DNA of 32,199 nucleotides from an uncultured Candidatus Saccharibacteria bacterium (GCA_964358975.1 CAYHQT010000001.1:1-32199); one strand, 5' to 3'. Counted from the first letter of the stretch, positions 5,031-30,505 are shown. Numbers and translations: made by a program. Notes: a model not told the origin generated them from the letters alone.

Positions 5031-7424
5031 ATGTTCTCATCAATCAAAACTAAATACGGCATCGCCCTCTTACTTTCCACCTTTATCCTAACCCTCACTC
5101 TCATCAATCAGTCTTGGAAAGAGTTCATCTTGGTTGCCATCAGACAATCCAATACATTCCTTCCGCGCATACTCAACTAGCTCAAGTCGATGGTCCCTCG
5201 TCGCAAAGCTCCTCGGGACAATTAGCCCAAGGGCTAATTGGTTGGTGGAAATTTGACGAGGGGAGCGGAACGGTGGCGGGGGATTCAAGCGGGAGCGGAA
5301 ACAACGGCACGCTCATGAATGGAGCGGCGTGGACAACGAGCGGAAAGATTGGAGGAGCGCTGTCTTTTGATGGTCAGAATGACGAAGTTGTTCTTGATAA
5401 TTTTAGTGATCTTGATTTTAGCCAGGAAAACGCTTTTACATTCAGCGCTTGGGTATATCCTCTAGGTAATAACGCAGGCGATATTATTTTCTCAAGAGGC
5501 GGATCGTTTACAAACGCGGGGAATGCCGTTTATCATTTTGGCGTATTAAATGTAGATGCCACCCGTTGGGTTATTAGGATTAGTGACGGAACCAGCATCC
5601 TCAGCGCCGATTTTACCGGTTCGGTCTCCATCAATCAGTGGCAACTCATATCTGCAATCTGGGATGGAAGCACGCTTAAGTTGTACAAAGACGGAATACT
5701 GATAGCTTCCAGACTTAAGGGCAGTTTCACGGCGCTTTGGGATGGGGACACTGCCAAGAAGAGAGAAACATCTATTGGAGCTGATGGGGCTGAAGAGTAT
5801 CTTAATTGGAATGGTAAAATTGATGATATGCGAGTCTACTCTCGCGCCCTGTCCGCCGCCGAAATTACCGCTCTCTATAACTACACCGGAGGCGCGGCCA
5901 CCCCCGCTCCGGTTAATGGTTCCTGCTCAACCACTTTCAACCAGTGTGTAACCGGAACATTCTCCGACATTGCCGATACCGGCGCGAACTATCTTTGGAG
6001 CTGTAACGGTTCAAACGGAGGCGCAAACACTGCCTGCTCTCTGCCGATTCCATCTCAAAGCGACACCTCTCCCCCAGTTATCAACGGCCCTAATACGTAT
6101 TATGTTTTATTAACAGGCGTTGACACTAATCCCGGAACACAGGCCCAACCTTGGCGCACCATTAGGAAAGCGGCAACCGTTGCTCTTGCCGGAGATACCG
6201 TCGTTGTCGGCAACGGTTCATTTGATGAAATGGTTGAAACGAAACATACAGGCACGCAAGCTAATCCCATTACCTTTAGAGGCTCCGGACAAACAATTAT
6301 TCAAAGTTTCGGAATATTCCACGAATGGAACAATGTTGATAACTTTAAAATAACAGCCTCAAATGCTGTGATTTATGGCGCGATAACTTTTACAGCTAGC
6401 AATATCAGAATTACAAACAACACGATTTACAATATGCATGTAATGGCTATTAGAATGACTAATAACGGTGGAGGTAGTCCGACAGTCGATTCATGGCCGA
6501 CAAATGTGTATATAGGATACAACACGTGATATTATCGGGCTTGCCAAAGGGGCCGAAAATCACAATGATTTTATCCAGACATGGTATGTTGCCGGATTTC
6601 ATTCAAAGAATAACTTAATAGAAGGGAATTGGATTAAAGACAATTATTTTCAGCTATATAACTTGGAGGATGGCGACCATGGAGCGGATTATAACAACTG
6701 GACCTTTAGAAATAATATATTCATCAATAATAAAATGAACGGAAACCTCGGTATCCCGAATAGTAAATTCTATAATAATACTTTTTATCATAGTCCCTAT
6801 ACGGATGGCAGTTATAGCCCGATTGTTTGTTTCAATCAGCCGGGATTTCATGCGACGGGCGGGGTTGTCGTAAATAATCTTTTTGTAAACAATGGATTTG
6901 AAACGCCGGAATTCAAACTGGGATCTTATTCTAATGGGTCTGTATGTTCCGGAGATTACAACTTGGTAGTAGGTATGCCGCCGACTTTTTCAACTTTAAG
7001 ATCATCCCCATCATTCTCAGATGCTCATGGTTTAAATGGAGTTGACCCAATTTTTGTTGATCCTGAAAATGGAGATTTCAGATTGCAGGCCGGAAGTCCT
7101 GCCATAGGAGCTGGCACTGCACTTAATGGAACATTTACGACTGATTATAATGGAGTAACACGTGGGGCATCTTGGGACATTGGCGCCTATGAATACTATT
7201 CCGGCCAGCCGATCACACCCCAGATTACTCCTCCGGTCATACCACCCATAGTTCCTCCCACCCCCATTATCGGAGATTTCAATGCCGACGGCGTAGTTAA
7301 CTCCATAGACCTTTCTCTAATGATAATCGCCTGGAATACGAGCAACACTATTTATGACCTCAACAGAGATGGAATTGTCAACTCTCTGGATTATGTGGTC
7401 ATGGTGCGGAATTGGACGGTGTAG
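5031..7424 (+). pseudogene. Leader-type LamG - 4-Cys - beta-helix - dockerin gene disrupted by two frameshifts
   Basis: ATG 5031 opens a canonical leader (MFSSIKTKYGIALLLSTFILTLTLINQSWKEF) that stops at ~5177. Relative to paralogs, 1 nt is missing at ~5139-5144, and the body continues in the frame of ORF 5114..6529. A second frame change at ~6516-6529 joins ORF 6663..7424, whose frame is open back to 6516 (..HNDFIQTW..). The pieces together reconstitute the family architecture. Confidence 0.8.
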
Positions 7425-7479
7425 GGGGTGATATAGATGTGAGATATATGCTCCATAAATTCGCGCTAATAAAGATTCT

Positions 7480-7508
7480 TTGACTCCACTACACGAATTT
7501 GCTATATT
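7480..7508 (+). promoter_or_regulatory. Sigma70-type promoter for the AbiE operon
   Basis: TTGACT (7480-7485), a 17-nt spacer ending in TGc, then TATATT (7503-7508). Confidence 0.5.
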
Positions 7509-7536
7509 TCAGTTATTGGTTAAATACAACATATAA

Positions 7537-8157
7537 ATGAAATACATTGATTTCTATGGACAATTCAAAGATTTCCCATTTATTAACATCAACGATGTTA
7601 AAACGGCGTTTCCAGACTATGAACCCAGACGCATGTATGAATGGCAAAAGGCCGGATATATAAGGAAAGTTGCCAGGAGTTTCTATGTATTTAATGATAG
7701 AAAATTGAACGAAGACGATCTCTGCCTGATATCAAACAAACTTCGCGAGCCTTCCTATATAAGTCTGGAATATGCTCTTAGCCAGTATTCCTTGATACCG
7801 GAAACGGTATTTGTACGTACGTCCATAACTACCAAGAAGACCGCCTCTTTTGAGACTGTTATAGGAAATTTCAGTTATCAATCCGTCAAAAAGACGTTAT
7901 TTTTCGGTTATGTTCTCCAAGGTCAGAAAAAGTCAAAATATAAATTTGCAGAACCGGAGAAGGCGATCCTGGATTTTCTCTACTTGCGTTCTGATATCAA
8001 GGATGGAAATGATATAGAAAGCTTAAGGATCAACGCGGATATATACGAGGAAATCATTGATGAAGAAAAGTTGGACAAATACTTGGGTATTTTTCAGCTT
8101 GTCACTTTGAATGAAAAGGTCGCTTTGCTCAGGGAATACATAAAGAAACATGATTAA
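7537..8157 (+). CDS. abiEi: AbiEi-family antitoxin (type IV TA, winged-helix N-terminus)
   Basis: 206 aa, of a size and N-terminal pattern typical of AbiEi_4-like proteins. It overlaps the downstream AbiEii gene by 8 nt (ATGATTAA). Confidence 0.7.
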   Translation: MKYIDFYGQFKDFPFININDVKTAFPDYEPRRMYEWQKAGYIRKVARSFYVFNDRKLNEDDLCLISNKLREPSYISLEYALSQYSLIPETVFVRTSITTKKTASFETVIGNFSYQSVKKTLFFGYVLQGQKKSKYKFAEPEKAILDFLYLRSDIKDGNDIESLRINADIYEEIIDEEKLDKYLGIFQLVTLNEKVALLREYIKKHD

Positions 8158-8920
8158 TTTAGAAGATATCAAAAAGAATTATCCGTATCCGGAAGGATTT
8201 GACCGCAGCGCTTTGCGGGAATATTTCCAATATAAGATCTTGGATATCCTTTTCAGGAACGGCTTATCGGAAAAGATATCATTCCTGGGCGGGACAGCCA
8301 TAAAGATCTGTTATGGTAGCCGCAGATATTCGGAGGACCTGGATTTTGATAATTTTGGATTGACTGCGGATGATTTTTCAAAGATGTCGGAGACTATCAA
8401 ACAGAGTCTCACTCTTGAAGGGTATGAAGTCGAGATAAGAAATATTCTGAAGACCGTATTCCGCTGCTATATCAAAATCCCAAGTGTTCTCTTTGATAAC
8501 AAGCTCAGTCCTCTGGCGAATGAGAAGATCAACATTCAAATAGACACTATGCCACATGATTTTAATTTCATGCCGGAGATTTTTATGCTTCAGAAATACG
8601 ATATCCTGCGGAATATCAGGGTGACTCCCAAAGACATCATCCTTTCCGAGAAGGTTGCGGCTATTATCGGACGCAAGAGAGCCAAAGGTCGCGATTTTTA
8701 TGATCTCGTCTATTTGCGAGGTATTACGGATTTCAATTATGATTATCTGCGGGCGAAACTGAATATCGGCAATGCCGGTGAATTGAGAGAAACTCTCCTG
8801 AAAGTCACCGAGGAATTTGATTTCCGTGCTCTTGTAGCAGATGTTTCGCCGTTTTTGATCAATCAGGATGAGAAGGCGTATGTGTTGAACTTCAGGCAGT
8901 ATGTCCAGCAGAAGTTATGA
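8150..8920 (+). CDS. abiEii: AbiEii/AbiGii-family nucleotidyltransferase toxin (DUF1814-like)
   Basis: 256 aa with the motif ISFLGGTAIKICYGSRRYSEDLDFD (GG..A....R.S.DLD NTase core). Translationally coupled to the AbiEi-like partner. Confidence 0.8.
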   Translation: MINLEDIKKNYPYPEGFDRSALREYFQYKILDILFRNGLSEKISFLGGTAIKICYGSRRYSEDLDFDNFGLTADDFSKMSETIKQSLTLEGYEVEIRNILKTVFRCYIKIPSVLFDNKLSPLANEKINIQIDTMPHDFNFMPEIFMLQKYDILRNIRVTPKDIILSEKVAAIIGRKRAKGRDFYDLVYLRGITDFNYDYLRAKLNIGNAGELRETLLKVTEEFDFRALVADVSPFLINQDEKAYVLNFRQYVQQKL

Positions 8921-8925
8921 TCAAT

Positions 8926-8971
8926 AAACTCTTTGGACTATGTGGTCATGGTGCGGAATTGGACGGTGTAG
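8926..8971 (+). repeat. Solo copy of a dockerin-gene 3' end (last ~46 nt plus stop); approximate left edge
   Basis: aactctttggactatgtggtcatggtgcggaattggacggtgtag closely matches 7380-7424 (a few mismatches), the end of the 5031-7424 gene. It begins ~5 nt after the abiEii stop and has no ORF body upstream. Confidence 0.9.
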
Positions 8972-8997
8972 GGGGGTACTTCTTTCTAACCGATAAT

Positions 8998-9006
8998 TGT
9001 GATAAT
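8998..9006 (+). promoter_or_regulatory. Extended -10-like box (TGtGATAAT) 11 nt upstream of ATG 9018
   Basis: Sequence match only. The spacing is longer than in the other cassettes. Confidence 0.35.
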
Positions 9007-9017
9007 ATGGAATTATT

Positions 9018-9428
9018 ATGAATATCGAAGCTATAAAACCGAAAATCGCCCAAATCGCCGAGAAATATGGACTGGATCTCGTAGTACTTTTTGGTTCACA
9101 GGCGACAGGAAAAATACATAAAGAAAGCGATATAGATATAGCTTATACCGGAGATAAAAAACTCTCTTTCGATGAAGAAATCAAAGCCAATAGCGACCTT
9201 ATAGATATTTTCAAGAGAGATGATGTGCAACTCGTCAATATAAAGAAAGCTTCTCCTTTGCTCATGAAGCAAATCGTCGACCACGCGATCATCTTGTATG
9301 AGCGTGAGAAAAACATTTTTAACTCTATCTTTGTTTTGGCGCAGAGAATGTTCGAAGATGCCAAGGTGTTATTTGATTTGCGCCGGCATTATTTGGATTA
9401 CAAGCTAAAAGAATATAAATATGCTTGA
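9018..9428 (+). CDS. mntA: MNT-type nucleotidyltransferase antitoxin
   Basis: LFGSQATGKIHKESDIDIAY (GS...G / DxD minimal NTase motif). Overlaps the downstream HEPN gene by 8 nt. Confidence 0.85.
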   Translation: MNIEAIKPKIAQIAEKYGLDLVVLFGSQATGKIHKESDIDIAYTGDKKLSFDEEIKANSDLIDIFKRDDVQLVNIKKASPLLMKQIVDHAIILYEREKNIFNSIFVLAQRMFEDAKVLFDLRRHYLDYKLKEYKYA

Positions 9429-9846
9429 CAAGAAATTTTTGGAGAAGAAGTTGGAGATGCTCACTGGCTATGTCGATGAGATGGAAAAAGCTATCTCGGG
9501 TTTTTCTATTGGAGAAATACGAGATGATCTCGACAAGCGTCGCGTGACTGAAAGAGTATTCCAACTTATCGTGGACTGTATGATAGACACAAATGTGCAT
9601 ATTATACGAGAAGGCAATTTTGGCGCGCCTGATGATCTCGAGAGCACTTTCAAAATGCTCGGGAAGTATAAAGTTCTGGATGAAGATTTTGCTAATAAGA
9701 TTGCGCCTATCGTCGGAGCCAGGAACATGATCGTGCACCGGTATGAAAAGCTTGATATCGACCTTTTCCTAAACAATCTTAAAAACAATTTCTTGGATTT
9801 CAAGAAGTATATTGTGCAGATAGATTCGTATATAAAAAAGAACTAA
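9421..9846 (+). CDS. hepT: HEPN (DUF86/HepT-like) toxin
   Basis: 141 aa with the R-x4-H motif in GARNMIVHRYEKLD. Paired with MNT. Confidence 0.85.
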   Translation: MLDKKFLEKKLEMLTGYVDEMEKAISGFSIGEIRDDLDKRRVTERVFQLIVDCMIDTNVHIIREGNFGAPDDLESTFKMLGKYKVLDEDFANKIAPIVGARNMIVHRYEKLDIDLFLNNLKNNFLDFKKYIVQIDSYIKKN

Positions 9847-9852
9847 TAATAA

Positions 9853-9912
9853 AGGGATGGCAGAGTGAACTCTCTCGACTATGTGGTGATGGTGCGGAAT
9901 TGGACGGTGTAA
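9853..9912 (+). repeat. Solo copy of a dockerin-gene 3' end (~60 nt, ends in TAA)
   Basis: gatggcagagtgaactctctcgactatgtggtgatggtgcggaattggacggtgtaa aligns to the ends of the dockerin ORFs (e.g. 4328-4387). It starts ~7 nt after the HEPN stop. Confidence 0.9.
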
Positions 9913-9933
9913 AAGTAAATGGACTTTCTATTC

Positions 9934-9955
9934 CATTTCTAATATAATAGAAATG
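9934..9955 (+). promoter_or_regulatory. 8-bp inverted repeat overlapping a TATAAT box (candidate operator/promoter)
   Basis: catttcta-atataa-tagaaatg, with TATAAT at 9943-9948. A second possible -10 (GATAAT, 9986-9991) lies 5 nt before ATG 9997. Confidence 0.4.
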
Positions 9956-9996
9956 AGGCAGTAATATTAACCAATAAATCGAAACGATAATAAAAT

Positions 9997-10587
9997 ATGA
10001 CTAAAAAGGAGATAATTTGGCGGGAAATCATTGAAAAAACCGCCCAAAAAGAACAATTGAAATTTACTCAAAAAGACTTGGCTAAAAAGTTCGGTTTTTC
10101 GTTGAGCACGATTTTTAACGCTTTAAAAATTCCGCGCCTTCTTGGGGCCATAAAAGTGGGAGGCAGAAGCTTCTCGGTTATTGATCTGGAAAAATTTCTG
10201 TATATCTGGGCGACCAACAGGAATTTGGATAAAGAAAAAATATATGAAACCCATGTGCCGAAAGCACCCAAAGAAATAGAAGGACTTTTGCCGGCGGAAA
10301 CGATTTTCGGCGCTTATAGCGCCTATTGCAAAAAATATTCCGACACGCCGGCCGACTACGATAAAGTCTATGTTTATGCCAATCCGGCGACGCTCGCGGA
10401 AATAAAAAAGAGATTTCCCAAAGTCAAAGGCTATGCGAATCTTTTCGTGTTGAAGAGCAATCCATCGCTTGACCGCTTCGGCGCTGTCACGCCGGATGTT
10501 CAGACATTCGTTGACCTTTGGAACTTGAAAGACTGGTACGTCAAAGATTATTTGAACGAAATTAAAAAGAAAATTTTACCGTTTTAA
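9997..10587 (+). CDS. Winged-helix/HTH protein, putative antitoxin of an AbiE-like pair
   Basis: HTH-like segment FTQKDLAKKFGFSLSTIFNALK. It ends 4 nt before the NTase-like partner. Confidence 0.5.
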   Translation: MTKKEIIWREIIEKTAQKEQLKFTQKDLAKKFGFSLSTIFNALKIPRLLGAIKVGGRSFSVIDLEKFLYIWATNRNLDKEKIYETHVPKAPKEIEGLLPAETIFGAYSAYCKKYSDTPADYDKVYVYANPATLAEIKKRFPKVKGYANLFVLKSNPSLDRFGAVTPDVQTFVDLWNLKDWYVKDYLNEIKKKILPF

Positions 10588-10591
10588 TTCT

Positions 10592-11209
10592 ATGGAATTT
10601 TATCACAATTTAATCACCGAAAAGAGCTTCCAATATCTGGAGGATTTGAAACGTCGCCACGATTTCGTTCTTATCGGCGGTTGGGCGGTTTTTATGTATT
10701 CTCGGCAATTGAAATCAAAAGACATAGATATTATCATTGATTATTCGGAACTGGCCAAAATGAAGGAAGAATACGATGTCGTGAAAAATGATCGTTTAAA
10801 AAAATATGAAATTAAAACCGGCGAGTTTGATATTGATATTTACTTGCCACATTATTCCGAATTAGGCGTTGATATTGAAGAAATCATAGAAACAGTCATT
10901 GTCCGTGGCGGGTTCAAAATCCCTTCATTAGAAATGCTTTTCCTGTTGAAACTTCATGCCTTTGAAAATCGTCGCGGTTCGGTCAAAGGGCAGAAAGATG
11001 AACTGGATTTGTTAAGTTTGGCGATATTGCCGGAATTTAATTGGCAAATATATTTGGCAATAGTCGCTAAATTTGATTTTACGACACCCCACGGATTGTT
11101 TTTAGATTTTCTAGGCAGAACCGTAGAGGTGAAAGAATTAGATTTGAATGAGCAAAAAATGTCCAAAATCAAGAAAATGATACGAGCTCGTTGTGAAAGT
11201 AAAAATTAA
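10592..11209 (+). CDS. Minimal nucleotidyltransferase-fold protein (divergent AbiEii-like), putative toxin
   Basis: FVLIGGWAVFMYSRQLKSKDIDIII resembles the GG.A....R.S.D[IL]D core of AbiEii/DUF1814 NTases. Confidence 0.5.
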   Translation: MEFYHNLITEKSFQYLEDLKRRHDFVLIGGWAVFMYSRQLKSKDIDIIIDYSELAKMKEEYDVVKNDRLKKYEIKTGEFDIDIYLPHYSELGVDIEEIIETVIVRGGFKIPSLEMLFLLKLHAFENRRGSVKGQKDELDLLSLAILPEFNWQIYLAIVAKFDFTTPHGLFLDFLGRTVEVKELDLNEQKMSKIKKMIRARCESKN

Positions 11210-11217
11210 TCTCGTTA

Positions 11218-11267
11218 GAATCAACTCTCTAGACTATGTGGTCATGGTGCGGAATTGGACACTATAA
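11218..11267 (+). repeat. Solo copy of a dockerin-gene 3' end (~50 nt, diverged last codons, in-frame TAA)
   Basis: gaatcaactctctagactatgtggtcatggtgcggaattggacactataa. It starts ~9 nt after the preceding stop codon. Confidence 0.85.
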
Positions 11268-11300
11268 GTAAGAAGTATACTCAATCTATTCTCCAAAAAG

Positions 11301-11311
11301 TGTGCTATAAT
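11301..11311 (+). promoter_or_regulatory. Extended -10 box TGTGCTATAAT, 6 nt upstream of ATG 11318 (leaderless)
   Basis: TATAAT 11306-11311, gcgcgc, then ATG. The same 19-mer aaaagtgtgctataatgcg recurs at 25342-25360. Confidence 0.6.
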
Positions 11312-11317
11312 GCGCGC

Positions 11318-11716
11318 ATGAATATAGATAGTATAGAATCAAAAGCGACCGAACTGGCTCACAAATACAATCTGGACATGATCGTCCTTTTCGGTTCTCG
11401 TGCCGATAATACCGCTACTTCCAAAAGCGATGTGGATATTGCTTATACAAAAAAAGAATCTCTTTCTTTCGAAGATCAGTTATCGCTGGGCAGTGAATTG
11501 GCTCCTCTTTTCGGCACCGAAGCCGTGGATGTTGTCTATTTGAATAGAACATCACCGGTATTCATGTATCAAATAATGAAAAAAGCCAAACTTCTGTTTT
11601 CGAAGAGTTCAATGTCATTTTCTAACCTTTTTTCTTACGCCATAAAAAGACTTCATGAAAACATGTTTTTGTATGATTTGAAGCTTGATAGATTGCGCGC
11701 GGAGTACGGCGTATAA
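11318..11716 (+). CDS. mntA: MNT-type nucleotidyltransferase antitoxin
   Basis: LFGSRADNTATSKSDVDIAY. The start was moved from the track's TTG 11255, which lies inside the solo repeat, to ATG 11318 just after the promoter box. Confidence 0.85.
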   Translation: MNIDSIESKATELAHKYNLDMIVLFGSRADNTATSKSDVDIAYTKKESLSFEDQLSLGSELAPLFGTEAVDVVYLNRTSPVFMYQIMKKAKLLFSKSSMSFSNLFSYAIKRLHENMFLYDLKLDRLRAEYGV

Positions 11717-11737
11717 TTAATAGGTAATTCAAATTCC

Positions 11738-12157
11738 ATGCCTCTTGAAAAAACATTCATTATTTCCAAAATCGAACGCATAAGGGAGAGTCTCGGTAAG
11801 GTCAGATCCAAGCTTCAGTTTTCCGATGAAGAAATACTTCGTTCAGACGATCATCTTGCGGTTTTGGAACGAAATTTCCAGTTGATGGTTGATTACGCGA
11901 TAGATATCAATCATCATTTCATAAAAGAAGGCGGGTATGGTATTCCTGATGATTTACAAAGTACTTTCACGGCTCTTGGAGAGCATAATATTCTACAAAA
12001 AGAATTCGCCGACAAAATCGGCAGGTCAGTCGGCTTGAGAAATCGCATAGTGCATCAATACGAAGATGTGAAGCCCGCGGTTTTTGTGGAGAGTCTAAGG
12101 AAAAATATTGGAGATTATGATGAGTACATAAGATACATACTCTCGAATATAAAATAA
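11738..12157 (+). CDS. hepT: HEPN (DUF86/HepT-like) toxin
   Basis: 139 aa with R-x4-H in GLRNRIVHQYEDV. Paralogous to 9421..9846. Confidence 0.85.
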   Translation: MPLEKTFIISKIERIRESLGKVRSKLQFSDEEILRSDDHLAVLERNFQLMVDYAIDINHHFIKEGGYGIPDDLQSTFTALGEHNILQKEFADKIGRSVGLRNRIVHQYEDVKPAVFVESLRKNIGDYDEYIRYILSNIK

Positions 12158-12204
12158 TTGATTGAAAAAGGTTTGAGGCTTTCTAGCTAGAAGAAATATT
12201 CACT

Positions 12205-15105
12205 ATGCCAATATTCCAGAGAATACTTTTCAAAGATATTATCAAAACCGAACACGGCATTGTCCTCTTACTTTCCAGTTTCATTCTCGTCACCACTCTC
12301 ATTGGTCAAAGTTGGAATGATTTTGCCTTGATTGCCGACCAGACCATTCAATCTATTCCAGCGCATACTCAACTAGCTCAAGTTAGCAGTCCCTCGTCGT
12401 TCTTCTCTTTCGCTTACGCTCAGGATCAGAACTCCTCTGGACAATTAGCCCAAGGGCTAATTGGCTGGTGGAAGTTTGACGAGGGCTCCGGCACGACCGC
12501 GGGGGATTCAAGCGGGAATGGAAATAATGGGACGCTGGTGAATTTTCCTACGAATAATTCTGGATGGATCGGAGGAGCCCTCTCTTTTGACGGGGTGGAT
12601 GATTATGTAAATGTTCCTGCTGTTAATTCGTTTTCCGCTAATGCTCCGATGACAATTAGCGCATGGTTCAAACCGGCCACAATCAATACTGGTGGTTCAG
12701 TGAAGTGCATTGTCTGTATCCCTAATCAAACATATGATGCCGCGGGAATAGGATATTTAAACAATAATCTAAGCTTCGCAATCGGCACTGAAACCTATGA
12801 TACCGGCGGAGTAAATGGAGGCAGCATAGTGGCGAATAAGTGGTATTTTATAACAGGAACATTCAACGGAACTGTGCAGAAACTTTATCTTAATGGTGCG
12901 TATGTAAATCAAAGTTTATCCGCGACATTAAATGCTTTTTCTTCATTAAAAATTGGCGGAAACGGAGGTGGTACTCGTTATTTCAAAGGTTCTCTCGACG
13001 ACGTCCGCGTCTACAACCGTGCCCTTTCCCAAGACGAGATCACTCAGCTCTATGCTCTTGGTTCCGCTCAAACGCCTTCCGACACCACCGCTCCTTCGGT
13101 GCCCACATCTTTTTCTGCCACAGCCATATCTTCCTCCCAAATCAATCTTTTCTGGACTGCTTCTACCGATAATACGGTCGTAACCGGTTACAAAATATAC
13201 AGAGGAGGAACGCAGGTCGGGACTTCAGCCACTAACTCATATTCTGATACTGGTCTTACCGCGGATACTTTATACTCGTACACCATTTCCGCTTACGATG
13301 CTGCCGGAAACATATCTTCACAGTCTTCCTCGGCTTCCGCTACCACACAACCCGCTTCTGTTTCCATCTACACTCTTACCGTTTCCAAATCAGGCACTGC
13401 CGCCGGCACAGTTTCTGGTGGTTCAATCAATTGCGGCTCTACTTGCGTCCAATCAAACATTACGGCAGGCACATCAATCACTCTAACCGCCGTTCCTAAC
13501 TCCAACTCCACTTTTACCGGCTGGTCTGGAGGCGGATGTTCTGGAACAGGAACTTGCTCTGTAACCGTTAACTCCGATTCAATCATAACTGCCACATTTA
13601 CCCAAAACCAGACTCAAGCTTCGGGTAATAAGTATATTACCCCCAATGGCGCTGGATTAAAGGATGGTTCGGACTGGGCAAATGCCTATGCCGGATTGCC
13701 TGCCTCGGGAACTCTGCAACGAGGAGCGACATATTATTTTTCAGCCGGAACATACGTAATCCCCTATACATTTTATAGCCTGAAACACAAATTTAATGAC
13801 CCTAATGACGGCACAAAAGTAATTACGATAAAGAAAGCAACTGCCGCGGAGCACGGCACGGATGTCGGCTGGCAGACAAGTTACGGAGGAATGAGCATCT
13901 GGACAGCTTCAGCAGGGGAGGGCACACATGCCATGCTTTGGTTCATTACGGACTACTATGTATTTGACGGCGGTTCAAGGGATCAATGCATACTTGACGC
14001 GAATAATACCGTCGAAGGACAAGCAGGGTTTATTCGGACTGACGGGTCGCATATTACCATTTCAAATTGCACGATTACAAAATATCTCGAATCTAAAGTC
14101 GTGCTCAATGGGGGTTCATACAATACGTTTTCACATTTATATTTTATAAACAACTATAAAAGCGATATTTTTTATCTTTGGGGGAGCTATAACACTATCA
14201 GCTATAACGAAGTGGACGGGTCAACGGAGCCTGCCGATCCCAATCCATCCTCGGGGAATCACGCGGACTTTGTTCAGACATTTGATATTAATACCCCGGG
14301 AACTATAGCTACTGATAATCTGATCGAATACAATTATGTTCATGATTCTCCTACACGCCAGTTATTTATGCTCTCGCAAATGCATTCCTCCTCTCGTTTT
14401 GAAAACTGGACATTTAGGAACAATATCTTTGCAAACACAGCGCCTGGATTTTCAGCGACAGTTGGCATAAACCTCTATAATAATATCTTTTATAATGTCG
14501 GCACTCTAAGCCATACCTATGCCGCATTTATCGGCCTGGGTTCCATTGCTTTTAATAATGCATTTTTATCCGGAACCGCCGGCCTTCTTTATTCTGGAGG
14601 GGCTAACCCAAATATCGATTATAACTATTTCGCTAATATTACAAATAATTATGCCGCACCAAGCTATTTTAATGTAAGTAGCATCGGAACACATAATATT
14701 TTGGGAGGAACTCCTGATTTTGTAAATGAAGCTCTGCAGGATTTTCATTTAAAACCAGGCAGCAGGATTATAGATGCGGGCATTGCTCCCGCAATATCTT
14801 TCGTTGATTATGATGGGGTTTCTCGCCCCCAAGGCTCGGCTTGGGACATTGGCGCTTACGAATACTATTCAGGCCAGTCGGTTACTCCACCTGTTTCAAA
14901 TCCAGTAAATAGTTTACCGATCACACCCGTCACTCCTCCTACCCTTATCATCGGCGACTTCAATAACGACGGCATAGTCAATTCCATTGACCTTTCTCTC
15001 ATGATTACCGCCTGGAATACGAGCAACACTATTTATGACCTCAACAGAGATGGAGCAGTCAACTCTCTGGATTATGTGATGATGGTAAGGAATTGGACGG
15101 TGTAA
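12205..15105 (+). CDS. Giant surface protein: TM leader - LamG - Fn3 - B-repeat-like Cys domain - beta-helix - dockerin
   Basis: 966 aa with the family leader (..EHGIVLLLSSFILVTTLIGQSW..ADQTIQSIP). LamG: GLIGWWKFDEGSGT...LDDVRVYNRALSQDEI. Fn3: APSVPTSFSATAISSSQINLFW. Divergent InlB-B-repeat-like domain: YTLTVSKSGTAAGTVSGGSINCGSTC...FTGWSGGGCSGTGTCSV. The beta-helix ends in SRPQGSAWDIGAYEY and is followed by the dockerin. Confidence 0.9.
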   Translation: MPIFQRILFKDIIKTEHGIVLLLSSFILVTTLIGQSWNDFALIADQTIQSIPAHTQLAQVSSPSSFFSFAYAQDQNSSGQLAQGLIGWWKFDEGSGTTAGDSSGNGNNGTLVNFPTNNSGWIGGALSFDGVDDYVNVPAVNSFSANAPMTISAWFKPATINTGGSVKCIVCIPNQTYDAAGIGYLNNNLSFAIGTETYDTGGVNGGSIVANKWYFITGTFNGTVQKLYLNGAYVNQSLSATLNAFSSLKIGGNGGGTRYFKGSLDDVRVYNRALSQDEITQLYALGSAQTPSDTTAPSVPTSFSATAISSSQINLFWTASTDNTVVTGYKIYRGGTQVGTSATNSYSDTGLTADTLYSYTISAYDAAGNISSQSSSASATTQPASVSIYTLTVSKSGTAAGTVSGGSINCGSTCVQSNITAGTSITLTAVPNSNSTFTGWSGGGCSGTGTCSVTVNSDSIITATFTQNQTQASGNKYITPNGAGLKDGSDWANAYAGLPASGTLQRGATYYFSAGTYVIPYTFYSLKHKFNDPNDGTKVITIKKATAAEHGTDVGWQTSYGGMSIWTASAGEGTHAMLWFITDYYVFDGGSRDQCILDANNTVEGQAGFIRTDGSHITISNCTITKYLESKVVLNGGSYNTFSHLYFINNYKSDIFYLWGSYNTISYNEVDGSTEPADPNPSSGNHADFVQTFDINTPGTIATDNLIEYNYVHDSPTRQLFMLSQMHSSSRFENWTFRNNIFANTAPGFSATVGINLYNNIFYNVGTLSHTYAAFIGLGSIAFNNAFLSGTAGLLYSGGANPNIDYNYFANITNNYAAPSYFNVSSIGTHNILGGTPDFVNEALQDFHLKPGSRIIDAGIAPAISFVDYDGVSRPQGSAWDIGAYEYYSGQSVTPPVSNPVNSLPITPVTPPTLIIGDFNNDGIVNSIDLSLMITAWNTSNTIYDLNRDGAVNSLDYVMMVRNWTV

Positions 15106-15148: not shown

Positions 15149-15385
15149 ATGAAGCATATCATTCAATTCTCTATTACGCGAGAAGACGGCACCTATACTG
15201 CCAATGGTGTCAATGTGCCTATTGTTACAGAAGGTAAAACTTTTGAGGAATTAGAAGGCAATATACATGAAGCTGTCGGACTATATTTCGATGGTGAAGA
15301 TCCGACTTCGTTGGGCTTCGTTGCGTCCCCGGCAGTTCTTACCAACTTTGAACTTATCCCCGCTGTCTATGGAAGTAAAGCTTAA
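15149..15385 (+). CDS. hicB: HicB-family antitoxin (short UPF0150-type)
   Basis: 78 aa. The motif ..TREDGTYTANGVNVPIVTEGKTFEELEGNIHEAVGLYF is typical of the HicB N-domain. It overlaps the hicA start. Confidence 0.75.
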   Translation: MKHIIQFSITREDGTYTANGVNVPIVTEGKTFEELEGNIHEAVGLYFDGEDPTSLGFVASPAVLTNFELIPAVYGSKA

Positions 15386-15611
15386 AGTATTGTCAGGGAT
15401 ACAAGTGACCAAAATTCTGGAGAATTACGGTTTTTCTGTTCATGCACAAAATGGAAGTCATATAAAGTTGAGAAGAACAACAATGGGCATAAGAGAGATT
15501 TTGATTGTTCCGAATCATAACCCTATTGCAAAAGGAACCTTGAAAGCAATTTTCACCCAAGCATCGCAATACATTTCAGAAACTGAATTGAGGAAACATT
15601 TTTATAATTGA
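15369..15611 (+). CDS. hicA: HicA-family mRNA interferase toxin
   Basis: MEVKLKVLSGIQVTKILENYGFSVHAQNGSHIKLRR...VPNHNPIAKGTLKAI matches the HicA dsRBD-like pattern. The start was set at internal ATG 15369; the track ORF starts at 15267 inside hicB. Confidence 0.75.
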   Translation: MEVKLKVLSGIQVTKILENYGFSVHAQNGSHIKLRRTTMGIREILIVPNHNPIAKGTLKAIFTQASQYISETELRKHFYN

Positions 15612-15616
15612 TTTTA

Positions 15617-15695
15617 ACTCCCTCGATGACGTGCACATCTACTCTCGCGCCCTGTCGGCCAACAAAGTGAAGCAGTTGTATAATCTGGGGAGATA
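15617..15695 (+). repeat. Solo 3' end of a LamG-repeat gene (encodes NSLDDVHIYSRALSANKVKQLYNLGR*)
   Basis: It aligns with the last codons of 30..626 (IDDVRVYNRALTGIEVKQLYNIGR*) and 15751..17907. It starts 6 nt after the hicA stop and has no ORF body upstream. Confidence 0.85.
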
Positions 15696-15703
15696 GGGGA
15701 GCC

Positions 15704-15735: not shown

Positions 15736-15744
15736 TGTTAAAAT
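15736..15744 (+). promoter_or_regulatory. Extended -10 (TGtTAAAAT), 6 nt upstream of ATG 15751 (leaderless)
   Basis: TAAAAT 15739-15744, ataccc, then ATG. Confidence 0.5.
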
Positions 15745-15750
15745 ATACCC

Positions 15751-17907: not shown

Positions 17908-17913
17908 AGTTAT

Positions 17914-20676: not shown

Positions 20677-20684
20677 GGTACAAA

Positions 20685-20695
20685 TGTGCTATAAT
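20685..20695 (+). promoter_or_regulatory. Extended -10 box TGTGCTATAAT, 6 nt upstream of ATG 20702 (leaderless)
   Basis: TATAAT 20690-20695 begins 14 nt after the dockerin-gene stop (20674-20676), followed by gctggc and ATG. Confidence 0.6.
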
Positions 20696-20701
20696 GCTGG
20701 C

Positions 20702-21130
20702 ATGGAAGGTAAAAGATTAACAGATGAACAAAGACAAGAGATCATCTCTCTAATGCAATCACGAGGGGCTATTGTCGGCTATCTATTCGGCTCATATGCC
20801 CGTGGCACAGCAGGACCTTTGAGTGATATTGATGTTGGTGTGGCTTTTCCGGAGACAATACCGAAGAATACCCAAGACACGCTCATCGAAGAGATCCGCA
20901 CTGGTTTGGAAAGAAAATTTGGAGGTAGAGACAAAGCTGATGTTTTGAATGTACCAGAACTTAAAAATCCATTACTCCGATACATTGTCACTTTGGGAGA
21001 AGGTCAAATACTATTTTCGGATGATCAATCTCTTCATAATAGATTGGCTAATTACGCTCTGCGTGAATATGAGGACACGAGGTCACTTCGATCAATTCAA
21101 AGTAAAGCTCTAGAGCATTTATTCGCGTAA
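20702..21130 (+). CDS. mntA: MNT-type nucleotidyltransferase antitoxin
   Basis: LFGSYARGTAGPLSDIDVGVAF. The start was set at ATG 20702; the track start 20684 lies inside the promoter box. Confidence 0.85.
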   Translation: MEGKRLTDEQRQEIISLMQSRGAIVGYLFGSYARGTAGPLSDIDVGVAFPETIPKNTQDTLIEEIRTGLERKFGGRDKADVLNVPELKNPLLRYIVTLGEGQILFSDDQSLHNRLANYALREYEDTRSLRSIQSKALEHLFA

Positions 21131-21140
21131 CTATATTTTC

Positions 21141-21435
21141 ATGACAACACTCAATATTGAATCAATAGAAGATAAATTATTTCGACGCTCATATTCTGGC
21201 TGAAGAATTTCATGAAAATCCCAAGAATTACGCGGAAATTATTACCGCGCTTGGAGAGCATGGCGTTATAGACAAAGAATTCGCGATCACCCAAGAAGAG
21301 ATGGCTAAATTTAGAAATAAGCTGATTCATGATTATGATTCAATTGATCGGTCTAAAACTGTTTTTTATGGCCGATCTGCTCCGGAAGTTTTCCGAACAT
21401 TTGGCAAGGCATTTACGGAGTATATAAAGAAATAA
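21141..21435 (+). pseudogene. Degraded HEPN (DUF86-like) toxin gene: internal deletion plus frameshift
   Basis: ATG 21141 gives only 20 codons (MTTLNIESIEDKLFRRSYSG*). The +1 frame then encodes ..AEEFHENPKNYAEIITALGEHGVIDKEFA...FRNKLIHDYDSID..EYIKK* (R-x4-H present) and ends at 21435. Roughly 45 residues of a normal DUF86 N-terminal half are missing. Confidence 0.75.
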
Positions 21436-21438
21436 AAA

Positions 21439-21531
21439 TGGAATACGAGCAACACTATTTACGACCTTAATAGAGATGGTATCGTTAATTCTCTGGATTA
21501 TGTGATGATGGTAAGGAATTGGAGTATGTAA
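21439..21531 (+). repeat. Solo copy of a dockerin-gene 3' end (93 nt; encodes WNTSNTIYDLNRDGIVNSLDYVMMVRNWSM*)
   Basis: It aligns to 20584-20676 and 15013-15105. It begins 3 nt after the HEPN-remnant stop and has no ORF body upstream. Confidence 0.9.
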
Positions 21532-21694: not shown

Positions 21695-22834
21695 ATGTAT
21701 ATACCAAGGTTTCCGAAAATCGAAGACAAAATAGGAATTGGAAAGGTTCTAGTTATTTATGGTGCAAGACAAGTAGGTAAGTCATTTTTGGTCAAGAAAT
21801 ATCTGGAAAAGGTTTCTAGAGAAACTCCAACTCTGAAACAATTATTTTTCAATGGAGAAGATGTCAATGTTCAAGCTATTTTTTCTTCAATGAATTTGAA
21901 AACACTTGATGAAGCGGTTGGGGATGCTGAACTCATGGTGTTGGATGAAGCACAAGTCATAAGAAATGTCGGGATCTCACTCAAATTACTTGTTGACACG
22001 AAACCGAGGTTGAAAATTATTGTTACAGGGTCTTCCTCGTTTGAACTTTCCGGCCAGATAGGAGAACCATTGGTCGGAAGAATGAATGTTATCAATCTTC
22101 TGCCTTTATGGGAAAGAGAAATAAAGGAAGGGGGACTTATGGATTATGTCACAGGACTTGATTTTGCGTTGCGCTTCGGACGTTATCCGGAGGTATTTCT
22201 GGAATCGGTCATTGAAAGGAAGAAAGAGATTGTTACGAATATCGTCAATGGTTATCTTTTGAAAGATATCTTGGCATTCGAGCAGGTGAAAAATTCAAAG
22301 TTAATTCTTGATCTATTGAAACTTCTGGCTTATCAAGTCGGAAATGAAGTTTCCGTAAATGAAATAGCCAATAATCTTTCTATCGGTAGAAATATAGTCA
22401 ATAGATATTTGGATTTACTTGAACAAAATTTTATTATTTTTCCACTCCATCCCTTTGCTAAAAATCTGAGGAATGAAATACGTAAAAAAGAGAAATATTA
22501 CTTTTATGATTTGGGTATCAGGAATGCTCTGATTGAGAATTTCGATGCGATCGATACTAGAGGTGATATCGGGGCACTCTGGGAGAATTATTTGATTGTA
22601 GAAAGACGCAAGCGCAATGCCTATACTGACCCTTACAAATCCGTCTATTTTTGGCGCAAATTATCTGGAGCAGAAGTAGATTTTGTCGAAGTATATAGCG
22701 ACCATATCGATGGTTATGAGTTTTCGTTGAAGGAAAAGGCTGGTAATAAATCGAAAAGATCTTGGTTGGAGAACTATAACAACGCTACATGGATAAATAT
22801 TCATAAAGAGAATTACAAAGATTTTATTTCCTAA
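21695..22834 (+). CDS. AAA+ ATPase (AAA_14 / DUF4143-type ATP-binding protein)
   Basis: 379 aa. Walker A: IYGARQVGKS. Walker B: LMVLDEAQ. The C-terminal region is typical of DUF4143 proteins. A possible TGcTAGGCT box lies 6 nt before the ATG. Confidence 0.75.
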   Translation: MYIPRFPKIEDKIGIGKVLVIYGARQVGKSFLVKKYLEKVSRETPTLKQLFFNGEDVNVQAIFSSMNLKTLDEAVGDAELMVLDEAQVIRNVGISLKLLVDTKPRLKIIVTGSSSFELSGQIGEPLVGRMNVINLLPLWEREIKEGGLMDYVTGLDFALRFGRYPEVFLESVIERKKEIVTNIVNGYLLKDILAFEQVKNSKLILDLLKLLAYQVGNEVSVNEIANNLSIGRNIVNRYLDLLEQNFIIFPLHPFAKNLRNEIRKKEKYYFYDLGIRNALIENFDAIDTRGDIGALWENYLIVERRKRNAYTDPYKSVYFWRKLSGAEVDFVEVYSDHIDGYEFSLKEKAGNKSKRSWLENYNNATWINIHKENYKDFIS

Positions 22835-22848
22835 CGGTAGATAGTAAT

Positions 22849-22957
22849 TCTAATGACCACCGCCTGGAACACGAACAACGCTACTTATGACCTTAACAGA
22901 GACGGCAGAGTGAACTCTCTGGACTATGCCATCATGGTGCGGAATTGGACGGTGTAG
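22849..22957 (+). repeat. Solo copy of a dockerin-gene 3' end (109 nt; encodes LMTTAWNTNNATYDLNRDGRVNSLDYAIMVRNWTV*)
   Basis: It aligns to 4279-4387 and 20568-20676. It begins ~14 nt after the ATPase stop. Confidence 0.9.
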
Positions 22958-24376: not shown

Positions 24377-24450
24377 ATGCCACTATCTATCCAAACATCA
24401 AATAAGGCATTCCTCAATTCATTAATCGCCGATCAAACAATCCATTCCTT
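24377..24450 (+). repeat. Degraded remnant of the leader-type gene 5' end (TM-coding part deleted)
   Basis: atgccactatctatccaaaca...atcgccgatcaaacaatccattcc parallels 27871-27891 (atgtccccatctatccaaaca) joined directly to the ADQTIQSIP-coding segment (28010-28040). Confidence 0.65.
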
Positions 24451-24537
24451 TATAGGTGCGAAATTGAATGGTGTATGGCCATGTCCATCTTGAGGTATTT
24501 CTTTACGATTACTACAAAATATGTAAAAATAGTAAAT

Positions 24538-25664: not shown

Positions 25665-26011
25665 GTGAAAAAAGAAATGTAAAATTATTTATTCAGGATT
25701 CTTTCGATGCTATTGATAAGATCAATGGTTATGTTTCTAATATTAAAGACGCTAATGAACTGAAAAATTCTGGGCAAACTTATGATGCGGTGATGATGAA
25801 TTTCATCGTTATCGGTGAGGCAATTAAAAATATTTATGAAGAAGTCCGTGAAAATTATCCGGATGTAGAATGGCGACAAATCATGGCAATGCGCAATATT
25901 TTAATACACGAGTATTGGGGAGTAGATGAAAAAGTAGTATGGAACGCGATTGGAAGAAATTTACCTGAATTAAAGGAAATTCTTACAAAGATTAGGAATA
26001 GTTTGAATTGA
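25661..26011 (+). CDS. hepT: HEPN (DUF86/HepT) toxin
   Basis: 116 aa with R-x4-H in [14 protein letters not shown]. Confidence 0.85.
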
Positions 26012-26034
26012 ACAATGTAGGTAAATAGAATTGT

Positions 26035-26289
26035 ATGTTCTCATCCCTAAAAACACCCCTAAAACCCGAACACGGTATCGCCCTCTTACTGTCCTGTTTC
26101 ATCCTCTCTCTCACCCTCATCAGTCAAAGCTGGAATGATTTCATATTAGTCGCCGACCAAACCATCCAATCCATTCCTTCCTCCGCCAACTGGCGGAATA
26201 CCCAACTTGCTTCGGCCGAAGGCGCTGATACATTAATTGCCCTCTCCCTAATGATCACCGTATGGAACCATAGCAACACCATAGGTTGA
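26035..26289 (+). pseudogene. Leader-dockerin minigene: family 5' leader fused directly to an internal dockerin fragment
   Basis: The 84-aa ORF has aa 1-66 equal to the family leader (MFSSLKTPLKPEHGIALLLSCFILSLTLISQSW..ADQTIQSIPSSANWRNTQLASAEGADT). It then continues LIALSLMITVWNHSNTIG*, which corresponds to dockerin SIDLSLMITAWNTSNTI. LamG, beta-helix and the dockerin 3' half are all missing. Confidence 0.8.
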
Positions 26290-30474: not shown

Positions 30475-30490
30475 AATATATACTAGAAGA

Positions 30491-30499: not shown

Positions 30500-30505
30500 A
30501 TAGTC

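Follow-up and report, generated by a model that had tools for sequence, protein, structure and literature searches.

Solo copies of a surface-protein gene end between toxin-antitoxin cassettes of a Patescibacteria contig: possible recombination scars in a paralogous gene array

How do short copies of the 3' end of a protein-coding gene, lacking the gene itself, come to lie between consecutive toxin-antitoxin (TA) and defense cassettes? The question is raised by a 32-kb groundwater Patescibacteria contig, analyzed here in full (32,199 nt; the window). Searches with the core GACTATGTGGTCATGGTGCGGAATTGGAC, allowing up to 3 mismatches, recovered 7 plus-strand occurrences versus 0 across 100 shuffles, and a repeat search of the window recovered a 62-nt unit (family D4) in 10 copies, all in the same orientation. 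These copies of a dockerin-coding 3' end divide into 5 that terminate genes and 5 solo tails, which confirms the report in the initial annotation of gene-end copies between cassettes. Pfam searches showed that the gene-terminal copies end long LamG/Dockerin_1 ORFs (stops at 4387, 7424, 15105, 20676, and 30474); since the gene at 5031-7424 contains two frameshifts, the claim that the repeat terminates at least five full-length genes holds for the five gene ends but includes one apparent pseudogene. The solo dockerin tails of the window are 45 to 109 nt long (n = 5), and all five begin 3 to 14 nt past an ORF stop (stops at 8920, 9846, 11209, 21435, and 22834). Most have the dockerin stop codon as their right end, and the distance from there to the start of the following cassette varies from about 45 to 165 nt. 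When the sibling contigs are included, tails range from 33 to 192 nt, corresponding to the stretch that is conserved among the paralogs (the ~206-nt repeat family D1), and nearly all of them, down to a shortest length of 33 nt, retain the extreme 3' end. The dockerin-end copies found are bimodal, being either full genes or tails of ≤192 nt, with no remnants of 200 to 2,000 nt among them.

Array 1 comprises the following features.

5031..7424, plus strand: LamG/beta-helix/dockerin surface-protein gene heading the array (Pfam Laminin_G_3 and Dockerin_1)
7228-7424, plus strand: R0, conserved dockerin 3' block, the last ~200 nt of that gene (nhmmer dockerin-end profile, positions 11-213)
7537..8920, plus strand: cassette C1, AbiEi antitoxin (7537-8157; PADLOC E = 7e-62) and AbiEii toxin (8150-8920; PADLOC E = 1e-80; Pfam AbiEii)
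8923/8927..8971, plus strand: solo tail R1, final 45 to 49 nt of a dockerin gene with its stop
9018..9846, plus strand: cassette C2, MNT (9018-9428) and HepT (9421-9846) (Pfam Polbeta/NTP_transf_2 and HepT-like)
9853..9912, plus strand: solo tail R2, final 60 nt of a dockerin gene
9997..11209, plus strand: cassette C3, HTH-like protein (9997-10587) and DUF6036-like nucleotidyltransferase (10592-11209), both Pfam matches being weak and below the curated cutoffs
11217/11221..11267, plus strand: solo tail R3, final ~47 nt of a dockerin gene (repeat copy; alignment with contig L014)
11318..12157, plus strand: cassette C4, MNT (11318-11716) and HepT (11738-12157) (Pfam; synteny with contigs L014 and L085)

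The heading gene changes frame near positions 5130 and 6530 (tblastn) and is probably a young pseudogene. In order of distance from it, R1, R2, and R3 are identical to its end at 43/45, 41/45, and 39/45 positions. The initial annotation had placed these three tails correctly to within a few bases and had noted that no ORF body precedes them; indeed, the spacers upstream are only 2 to 11 nt long, there is no nhmmer match to the 5' block of the gene family, and a search for decayed paralog sequence upstream of the array 1 tails recovered none. Its cassette identities stand for AbiEi/AbiEii and the two MNT/HepT pairs, while the third is limited to a weak HTH and a subthreshold DUF6036-type match. 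A gene end with a stop codon precedes each array 1 cassette, consistent with the proposal that the gene end is regenerated to the left of the insert, but the heading gene itself is frameshifted, and the stop of R3 is not the original one: alignment with L014 shows that a small deletion removed 7 to 9 nt at its end, contrary to the statement that all tails carry the in-frame stop. Repeat copies lie on both sides of only three of the four cassettes, as C4 runs straight on to the next gene (12205) without an intervening tail.

Contig breaks at tails are common in this population, and the arrangement might reflect short-read contigs wrongly joined at a 30- to 60-nt repeat. This explanation is scarcely credible, as all of the array 1 junctions recur at 99.8 to 100% identity in six independent contigs drawn from three further assemblies (L001, L013, L022, L059, L060, and L061), with L059 containing C2-R2-C3-R3-C4-next gene in one piece; they are therefore not misassemblies at the repeat.

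Comparable tails occur elsewhere in the window, both behind a HicA-type toxin and in a second array.

15149..15611, plus strand: HicA-type toxin (15267-15611; Pfam HicA_toxin) and an overlapping 78-aa ORF (15149-15385) that matched no Pfam family
15612..15696, plus strand: solo tail, final ~80 to 85 nt of a gene end encoding a C-terminal LamG domain (nhmmer LamG-end profile, positions 22-99, E = 2e-17)
20684..21435, plus strand: first cassette of array 2, MNT (20684-21130) and a decayed HepT with two in-frame stops (Pfam), here MNT/HEPN'
21439..21531, plus strand: solo dockerin tail, 93 nt (repeat copy)
21695..22834, plus strand: AAA_14/DUF4143 ATPase, candidate defense family PDC-S01 (Pfam, PADLOC)
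22849..22957, plus strand: solo dockerin tail, 109 nt (repeat copy)
24378..24480, plus strand: patchwork gene remnant after a second ATPase (direct reading; family D15 copy at 24422-24451)
26007..26289, plus strand: gene remnant with the full 5' conserved block and an internal dockerin piece at 26218-26281 (nhmmer)

The HicA unit stands behind the dockerin gene 12205-15105, and the tail that begins 0 to 6 nt past the HicA stop is of the LamG type (compared with 537-626 and 17818-17907), so that its two flanks belong to different gene-end families. A distinct Patescibacteria lineage shows an array that reads LamG end and ATPase, then tail and AbiE, then tail and pheT; since LamG-type tails thus occur both after HicA and beside pheT, the tail geometry is independent of a particular sequence. 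The LamG gene end also encodes a perfect TATAAT ~20 nt upstream of the start of the next gene, and the cassettes bear promoter-like TGnTATAAT sequences of their own. In array 2, the remnant at 24378-24480 joins a LamG/dockerin start codon and 5' conserved bits to the decayed last ~28 nt of a dockerin end, and that at 26007-26289 combines the 5' block (profile E = 8.5e-50, nhmmer) with dockerin profile positions 76-139. As both carry 5' pieces, interior deletions of paralogs also occur at this locus.

Comparison with sibling contigs from the same aquifer showed that the cassettes are reshuffled, with breakpoints exactly at the tail edges. In L031, the array 2 cassette MNT/HEPN' is followed by the array 1 cassette C2: homology to the window ends at 21437, which is 2 nt short of the tail at 21439-21531, and restarts at 8927, the first base of R1. 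The two segments correspond to window 20367-21437 (L031 864-1922, 92.7% identity) and window 8927-9872 (L031 2033-2977, 90%), while the remainder of the genes preceding MNT/HEPN' shows only ~35% protein identity. R1 is contiguous with C2, and the R1+C2 unit is inherited together, being present in both L031 and L024. R3 is likewise contiguous with C4, which in L014 and L085 stands directly behind a full dockerin gene. Here homology begins at 11217, the first base of R3 (window 11217-12359 matches L085 3566-4734 at 84%), and the corresponding end belongs in L085 to a full 960-aa gene, with flanking genes that are no orthologs of their counterparts in the window, and in L014 to a dockerin stretch of 222 nt or more. 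Thus, the changes in cassette order at tail edges support the suggestion of the initial annotation that a multicopy 3' end serves as a recombination substrate.

The joints between cassettes and tails differ between strains in 6/6 comparable sets. The tail is 45 nt behind the AbiE cassette in the window versus ~190 nt in L037; 93 nt behind MNT/HEPN' versus at least 124 nt, from a different paralog, in L031; and 60 nt after C2, where L031 has an internal dockerin piece. Before C2, tails measure 45, 123, and 124 nt across strains; before the gene at L031 4605, 152 or 57 nt; and before a 536-aa gene, 82 or 79 nt. On the cassette side, roughly 16/22 joints fall at the stop codon (about -26 to +14 nt), with AbiE and MNT/HEPN' each using an identical base in two contexts; several others fall within the final codons of the ORF (L056/L002 and L067) or 20 to 54 nt past its end. 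Across the ~22 junctions, the left leftover has a median of ~6 nt versus ~80 nt on the right, about a tenfold difference, and we saw no consistent microhomology. A tail and its downstream unit constitute a single inherited block, such blocks of 3' end plus cassette move between different gene bodies, and each cassette-tail joint is unique.

The best explanation, which we hold tentatively as something approaching an even chance, is that the solo fragments represent gene ends that were orphaned, i.e., scars of recombination in a large paralogous array of surface-protein genes. Each tail would originally have been the 3' end of a LamG/dockerin or LamG-only gene, kept with its own downstream neighbor (a cassette or the next gene) upon the upstream entry of a new segment made up of a conserved 3' block, a spacer, and a TA or defense cassette. 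On the left, the segment would pair with the conserved 3' block by ordinary homologous recombination, yielding a complete gene end; on the right, the end of the incoming cassette would be joined nonhomologously to a point inside the resident 3' block, the whole process being a homology-facilitated illegitimate recombination (HFIR). Repeated entry would stack the cassettes, with the newest beside the intact gene and older tails farther downstream. Such a process would require neither a dedicated recombinase nor an attachment site, and the tails, with no function of their own, could still supply homology for later shuffling and loop-out. The product of the surface gene would never change, the repeated piece being a true gene end with its own stop codon.

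Several observations favor this reading. A joint made inside a paired anchor would keep tails within the conserved stretch and leave no mid-size remnants, as random deletion would not. Sequential displacement would also produce an age gradient, which fits the declining identity along array 1 and the stop loss of R3. Our searches recovered no recombinase, fold, or Rfam family, and the cassettes are AT-richer than the surface genes (GC content, 0.34 to 0.40 versus 0.41 to 0.48), as the tips of rhs genes are of lower GC content than their cores (PMC2935791). On the other side, the unlike flanks of HicA would need an insertion-deletion or an additional exchange, the stop-codon clustering of cassette-side joints is not predicted by the model, and the joints lack the microhomology and variable donor positions of published HFIR joints (Prudhomme 2002; de Vries & Wackernagel 2002; both cited in PMC5361080). 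Both the direction of events (insertion over deletion) and the HFIR-type mechanism are what we infer; as no clean empty-site/filled-site pair of orthologous loci was found among the sibling contigs compared, insertion is not told apart from deletion of intervening genes.

That deletion alternative, a serious if less likely rival, envisages an ancestral gene-cassette-gene-cassette layout from which the intervening genes were mostly lost, leaving pseudogene tails of the last 33 to 190 nt. The alternating layout is still present elsewhere in the window, the gene 5031-7424 is in decay, the two array 2 remnants combine 5' conserved and dockerin pieces, L027 and L042 may have short 5'-like bits separating cassette from tail, a deletion up to the -10 box is visible at 26289/26294 relative to L056, and the two gene-end families around HicA would be directly explained. 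It fits poorly, however, with the bimodal remnant sizes, with the asymmetry of the leftovers, which random or successive deletions should make symmetric, with the absence of any 5' remnant in array 1, and with the reuse of the same cassette-side base in independent AbiE and MNT/HEPN' joints. Moreover, the relatives recovered for the pheT lineage (pheT 74 to 79% identical) have no source gene there for the two LamG-type tails.

The identical stop-codon joints of AbiE and MNT/HEPN', the lack of microhomology, the new joints in every strain comparison (suggesting that joint formation is frequent), and the recurrence of the geometry in a distant Patescibacteria lineage would all suit a dedicated system, encoded elsewhere in the genome, that mobilizes cassettes by a precise 3' cut and pastes them into multicopy gene ends. 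Were TA and defense cassettes of Patescibacteria moved in this enzyme-driven manner, by cutting at the ORF end and splicing into multicopy gene ends, it would be a functional analogue of integrons without IntI or attC, with stop-codon joints and ever-new tail lengths as its footprint. We regard both the system and this wider claim as improbable: neither the 32-kb contig (Pfam; large and cassette ORFs) nor the examined sibling loci contain a recombinase or transposase, as the initial annotation had already noted for the window; no conserved sequence or fold marks the cassette ends or the tails; joints within the last codons or 20 to 54 nt past the ORF imply an end of less than strict precision; target positions form a continuum across ~190 nt; and in other Patescibacteria, no tails accompany the AbiE homologues that follow giant genes. 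Retention of the tails for a function, as terminators or insulators, as promoters or operators for the downstream cassette, or as selected homology handles, is very improbable. Near-universal retention of the extreme 3' end and the TATAAT of the LamG gene end would speak for it, but the tails fold no better than shuffles (five on the plus strand and three on the minus strand, as single-stranded DNA; z = -0.5 to +1.5), which also bears out the reported lack of attC symmetry. Further, they match no Rfam family and contain no terminator-like sites, the promoter-like sites lie downstream of them, their distance to the cassette varies, and R3 is short of its end; the fixed right end of the tails, at which no joint exists, has a trivial explanation. 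A diversity-generating retroelement, which would bring a nearby reverse transcriptase (RT) and adenine-specific mismatches to the gene end, was rejected: the Pfam scans recovered no RT domain, and R1 differs from the end of the gene 5031-7424 by C/T changes only.

Among known systems, islands that integrate at the 3' ends of tRNA or protein genes (e.g., phage 21/e14 in icd and the tycheposon arrays) carry an integrase, use a fixed crossover, and displace a fragment that is constant in length for each element. In these islands too, the insert has a complete gene end on its left side and a partial, displaced one on its right, and tandem arrays may form. However, the analogy with such islands drawn in the initial annotation fails: tail length varies for the same cassette and the same downstream unit, the cassettes comprise TA and defense genes only, with no integrase, there is neither a fold nor a recombinase in the 32 kb, R3 has decayed, a second, unrelated gene end behaves alike, and array 2 contains 5' gene remnants. 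Integron arrays are similarly compact, co-oriented, and TA-rich, with a variable-length repeat of conserved right end after each stop; in contrast, here there is no IntI in the contig, which makes up the entire record, so that a gene farther away in the genome may exist; there is also no attC symmetry or fold, the cassettes have their own promoter-like sequences, and the length of the repeat is not set by the cassette.

Closer parallels are found in the rhs and type VI secretion system (T6SS) effector-immunity loci, for which sequential displacement by HFIR has been proposed (PMC2935791, PMC5361080). In the T6SS modules of Vibrio cholerae (Kirchberger et al. 2017; PMC5361080), as here, a conserved upstream anchor is combined with a nonhomologous joint on the other side, no integrase is involved, and the former gene's 3' end is shifted downstream along with the older modules. 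In Vibrio, however, the effector is replaced by the new module and its immunity genes remain as orphans, whereas in the present arrays there is no replacement and part of the anchor is duplicated; our joints also hug ORF ends and lack the microhomology that has been reported with HFIR. The orphan strings of rhs (Jackson et al. 2009; PMC2935791) and their cdiA/mafB analogues (Poole et al. 2011; PMC3150448) similarly begin with an intact gene, behind which lie conserved pieces in the same orientation, truncated on the 5' side and varying in length, each tied to a different variable module of lower GC content, with homology of the conserved part limiting exchange and recombination there building and reshuffling the array. 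As in displacement arrays, the fragment-plus-module unit is also attached to full genes elsewhere (R3+C4 in L014/L085). The initial annotation had set the rhs/CDI arrays aside for want of a new C-terminal domain, and the modules are indeed distinct: in place of the in-frame toxin domain and immunity gene of rhs, cdi, maf, and T6SS loci, they are free-standing type II/IV TA and defense operons with their own promoters, beginning about 45 to 165 nt downstream. The host lineage (Patescibacteria), the LamG/dockerin surface proteins, and the use of two different conserved ends further distinguish them from rhs/cdiA. By analogy, nevertheless, the tail geometry matches the C-terminal or sequential displacement arrays of rhs and T6SS loci (PMC2935791, PMC5361080), so the kind is not without precedent, and the array looks like a variant of the recombination scars of polymorphic-toxin loci rather than the product of a new integration machine.

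The window constitutes a complete NCBI/ENA contig of 32,199 nt that derives from metagenomes of Hainich groundwater (well H43). In the databases it is most closely related to two MAGs labelled Candidatus Saccharibacteria, whose shared cassettes are about 90% identical to those of the window at the nucleotide level; exact-protein look-ups with the window proteins retrieved the same strain only. All of the sizeable genes lie on the + strand, on which small cassettes alternate with large LamG-domain surface-protein genes, many of them terminated by a type I dockerin. Nearly all of the cassettes consist of toxin-antitoxin or candidate defence genes, and the ORFs scanned in the window yielded no recombinase, transposase, or reverse transcriptase domains. 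The cassette inventory of the window is as follows:

AbiEi/AbiEii, two copies
MNT/HepT, four to five copies
HicA
HigB-like protein
NYN nucleases, two copies
AAA_14/DUF4143 ATPases of PADLOC family PDC-S01, two copies

The GC content of the cassettes is 0.34 to 0.40, as against 0.41 to 0.48 for the surface-protein genes. Upstream of many cassette starts lies an extended −10 element (TGCTATAAT or TGTGATAAT) lacking a good −35 (e.g., 20703-20711, 11305-11313, and 8995-9003). In the LamG-only genes, conserved C-terminal codons (CTC TAT AAT ATG GG...) spell a perfect TATAAT about 20 nt before the start of the next gene (17885-17913, 600-664, and 26007-26034), and the end of such an upstream gene may double as the promoter of the downstream one. 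A conserved 87-nt stretch (family D19) with tandem GGAATTT/AGAATTT units also extends across LamG-only gene starts (15736-15822 and 30491-30577; 78% identity).

A 62-nt dockerin-end unit is present in 10 copies, all co-oriented, of which five close long ORFs and five are solo tails; seven matches to the 29-nt dockerin-end core were counted at three or fewer mismatches, against none in shuffles. Three solo tails belong to array 1, in which gene 5031-7424 is followed by cassettes C1 to C4, and two belong to array 2, the region from 20684:

8923/8927-8971, + strand, solo dockerin tail R1, after C1 (AbiEi/AbiEii)
9853-9912, + strand, solo dockerin tail R2, after C2 (MNT/HepT)
11217/11221-11267, + strand, solo dockerin tail R3, after C3 (HTH and NTase)
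21439-21531, + strand, solo dockerin tail in array 2
22849-22957, + strand, solo dockerin tail in array 2

The solo copies start 3 to 14 nt past the stop codon of the ORF before them and extend to the dockerin stop. In R3 a small deletion has removed the original stop, so that the in-frame stop initially annotated there is a different one. Every junction of array 1 is spanned by independent contigs from three other assemblies (99.8 to 100% identity), one of which covers C2-R2-C3-R3-C4 and the next gene in a single piece. Hence, the array is not a mis-join at a repeat. The initial observation of solo tails bounding the cassettes is genuine, robust, and recurrent. A complete gene end stands to the left of every cassette, array 1 is free of 5' remnants, and identity to the end of the heading gene drops along it (43/45, 41/45, and 39/45). 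No tail lies behind the last cassette of either array, so that the direct repeats do not flank every cassette as had been claimed.

The initial annotation also held that the dockerin end terminates at least five full-length genes. Five long ORFs do close with it, but one of these genes, the LamG/beta-helix/dockerin gene 5031-7424 that heads array 1, requires two frame changes to align with its paralogs (near 5130-5138 and 6530-6560) and is an apparent young pseudogene. Two gene remnants likewise point to ordinary gene decay in this region:

24378-24480, start codon and 5' conserved bits fused to the decayed last ~28 nt of a dockerin
26007-26289, 84-aa ORF with a complete 5' block fused to an internal dockerin piece

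Beyond the latter remnant, a further deletion extends up to the −10 box belonging to the cassette that follows. The putative 5' bits of three related loci (L027, L042, and L031), which are very short, were not detected by a profile built on the 5' block of the genes.

Scanning public metagenomes and genomes for the pattern recovered about 25 loci of relevance, almost all of them originating from the same aquifer as the window. A dockerin-end profile identified about 25 non-redundant solo tails in these loci. Comparison with two sibling contigs shows what travels together: R1 with C2 (window 8927-9872) corresponds to L031 2033-2977 at 90% identity, and R3 with C4 and the start of the next gene (window 11217-12359) corresponds to L085 3566-4734 at 84%, where the R3-equivalent end is part of a complete 960-aa dockerin gene. 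A tail and its downstream neighbor are thus a single inherited block, and what had looked like a "fixed right end" is a native gene end beside its native neighbor rather than a joint. The initial annotation was correct in taking a multicopy gene end as the site of cassette stacking and reshuffling.

The sole joint connects the cassette end to a point within the conserved 3' block (the dockerin-coding gene end conserved among paralogs), and it differs in every available comparison. Behind the AbiE cassette ("...TGATCAATA"), the dockerin tail measures 45 nt in the window versus about 190 nt in L037; the array 2 cassette MNT/HEPN' is followed by a 93-nt tail in the window versus one of at least 124 nt, from another paralog, in L031; and C2 is followed by 60 nt in the window versus an internal dockerin piece in L031. 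Viewed from the downstream side, C2 has tails of 45, 123, and 124 nt in front of it, each behind a different cassette; the tail ahead of gene L031 4605 is 152 or 57 nt long, and that ahead of a 536-aa gene is 82 or 79 nt. Tail lengths form a continuum between 33 and about 192 nt, which is the extent of conservation among the paralogs (a ~206-nt repeat family), and copies are either full genes or tails, with none of 200 to 2,000 nt. On the cassette side, the joints lie at the ORF end, about −26 to +14 nt from the stop in roughly 16/22 cases (median near +6); a few are 20 to 54 nt off the stop, and in L056/L002 and L067 the cassette ORF reads into the tail and terminates there. The cassette-side base is identical in two contexts each for AbiE and MNT/HEPN'. 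By-eye inspection revealed neither a microhomology nor a motif that recurs consistently at the joints. Paired with the first array 2 MNT is a decayed HepT (21142-21435) with two in-frame stops, whose original stop nevertheless marks the joint with the tail in both the window and L031.

The wider region is a mosaic generated by homologous exchange in conserved blocks and is rearranged between strains. The same 3' region and cassette are found on differing gene bodies (window 20367-21437 and L031 864-1922; 92.7% identity), the remainder of the genes having ~35% protein identity, and L031 joins a match to the right end of the window (30315-32178) to a match to its left part (1640-3371). An empty-site search for array 1 with the C4 HepT homolog led to L085, where C4 directly follows a full gene in a mosaic, non-orthologous gene context. 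Within the window, nt 1 to 110 are 94% identical to 15968-16077.

The tail geometry is not tied to the dockerin sequence. The HicA stop (15611) is followed at 15612-15696 by the last 80 to 85 nt of a LamG-type gene end, starting 0 to 6 nt past the stop and succeeded by a hairpin and T-run (GAGCCGAAAAAGGTCGGACCTTTTT), which places the HicA cassette between a dockerin end to the left and a LamG-type tail to the right. In an unrelated Patescibacteria lineage located via AbiEii homologs (L065-L068; 81% identity; e.g., L067 1-2920), the order is a LamG-type end, a PDC-S01-type ATPase, an 86-nt LamG-type tail, AbiEi/AbiEii, a 47-nt LamG-type tail, and pheT. Relatives of this pheT lineage (L076-L083; pheT at 74 to 79% identity) have pheS-DUF5069-pheT with no array and are too distant to decide the empty site. 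Other AbiEi/AbiEii cassettes from other metagenomes (L062-L064 and L069-L075; 75 to 82% identity) lie 58 to 66 nt behind very large genes (1,689 to >5,109 aa) and upstream of Fic/PemK genes or a LamG protein; no duplicated gene end was found at these.

Because tail length is constant for neither a given cassette nor a given downstream unit, the tails fold no better than shuffles, no Rfam family reaches the gathering score anywhere in the window, and no candidate enzyme is present, we exclude site-specific models as the source of the joints. These include an integron/attC system (no integrase was found among the ORFs scanned), islands targeting tRNA-type gene ends, and Campbell-type circle shuffling or any fixed-unit model; with them falls the likeness to integrase-type docking drawn initially. 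A regulatory role of the tails is unlikely, as a scan found no terminator or promoter inside them. A diversity-generating retroelement (DGR) template repeat is rejected, given that the ORFs scanned contain no reverse transcriptase and that tail-gene mismatches are not adenine specific; a phage or episome vector is likewise rejected, the one match of a viral-contig scan (same contig as L021) not being a dockerin tail. Ten termite-gut loci (Ga0123355, Ga0123357, and Ga0131853) with a 34- to 38-nt repeat (TTATGTATGTATGGTAGGGAATTGG...) were chance pattern matches unrelated to dockerin and were discarded.

Two explanations are left, of which we tentatively favor sequential displacement. In this process, homology would let an incoming segment comprising the conserved 3' block and a cassette pair with the end of a resident gene, the segment would be closed by a non-homologous joint located within the paired stretch, and the resident end would thereby be duplicated and shifted downstream along with its neighbor. 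This would explain why tails are confined to the conserved block, why array 1 lacks 5' remnants and each cassette has a complete end to its left, why cassette GC is lower, and why identity declines along array 1. Deletion of intervening paralogs as the origin of the tails is the less probable of the two: this accounts for the array 2 remnants and the HicA case but for neither the bimodal remnant sizes nor the tenfold asymmetry between left and right leftovers. Displacement and deletion probably both operate. Neither explains why cassette-side joints hug stop codons; that feature, with the identical base used by AbiE and MNT/HEPN' in two contexts each, would suit an enzyme-driven mechanism of an undescribed type, which we nevertheless regard as quite improbable.

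If the displacement reading holds, the process would reach beyond polymorphic-toxin loci, and cassettes could be stacked by nothing more than one illegitimate joint and homologous pairing within a conserved stretch of a gene. It would offer a general route by which streamlined Patescibacteria genomes build toxin-antitoxin and defence islands, multicopy surface-protein genes serving as the landing pads. An ORF stop with a truncated multicopy gene end directly behind it provides a concrete signature in the sequence by which such islands can be found, and the reading also helps in dating and ordering the acquisition of cassettes. How precisely the cassette-side joints are placed is a minor yet genuine puzzle, with a bearing on the origin of compact gene cassettes.

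A full-text literature search for Patescibacteria with toxin-antitoxin and dockerin found no paper. The geometry itself has precedents, contrary to the initial annotation. In the "C-terminal displacement" of rhs loci, an intact gene is followed by strings of variable-length core fragments with a different tip on each, which Jackson et al. explain by homologous recombination via a circular intermediate (PMC2935791); the geometry is the same as that of the window arrays. These also match the sequential displacement of Vibrio cholerae T6SS effector-immunity modules, for which the proposed mechanism is homology-facilitated illegitimate recombination that uses an upstream anchor (PMC5361080). In contrast to both, the repeated piece in the window is a true gene end carrying the gene's own stop codon, so that the protein is unchanged; the stacked modules are free-standing toxin-antitoxin/defence operons; two different conserved ends are used; and the host is a Patescibacteria lineage.
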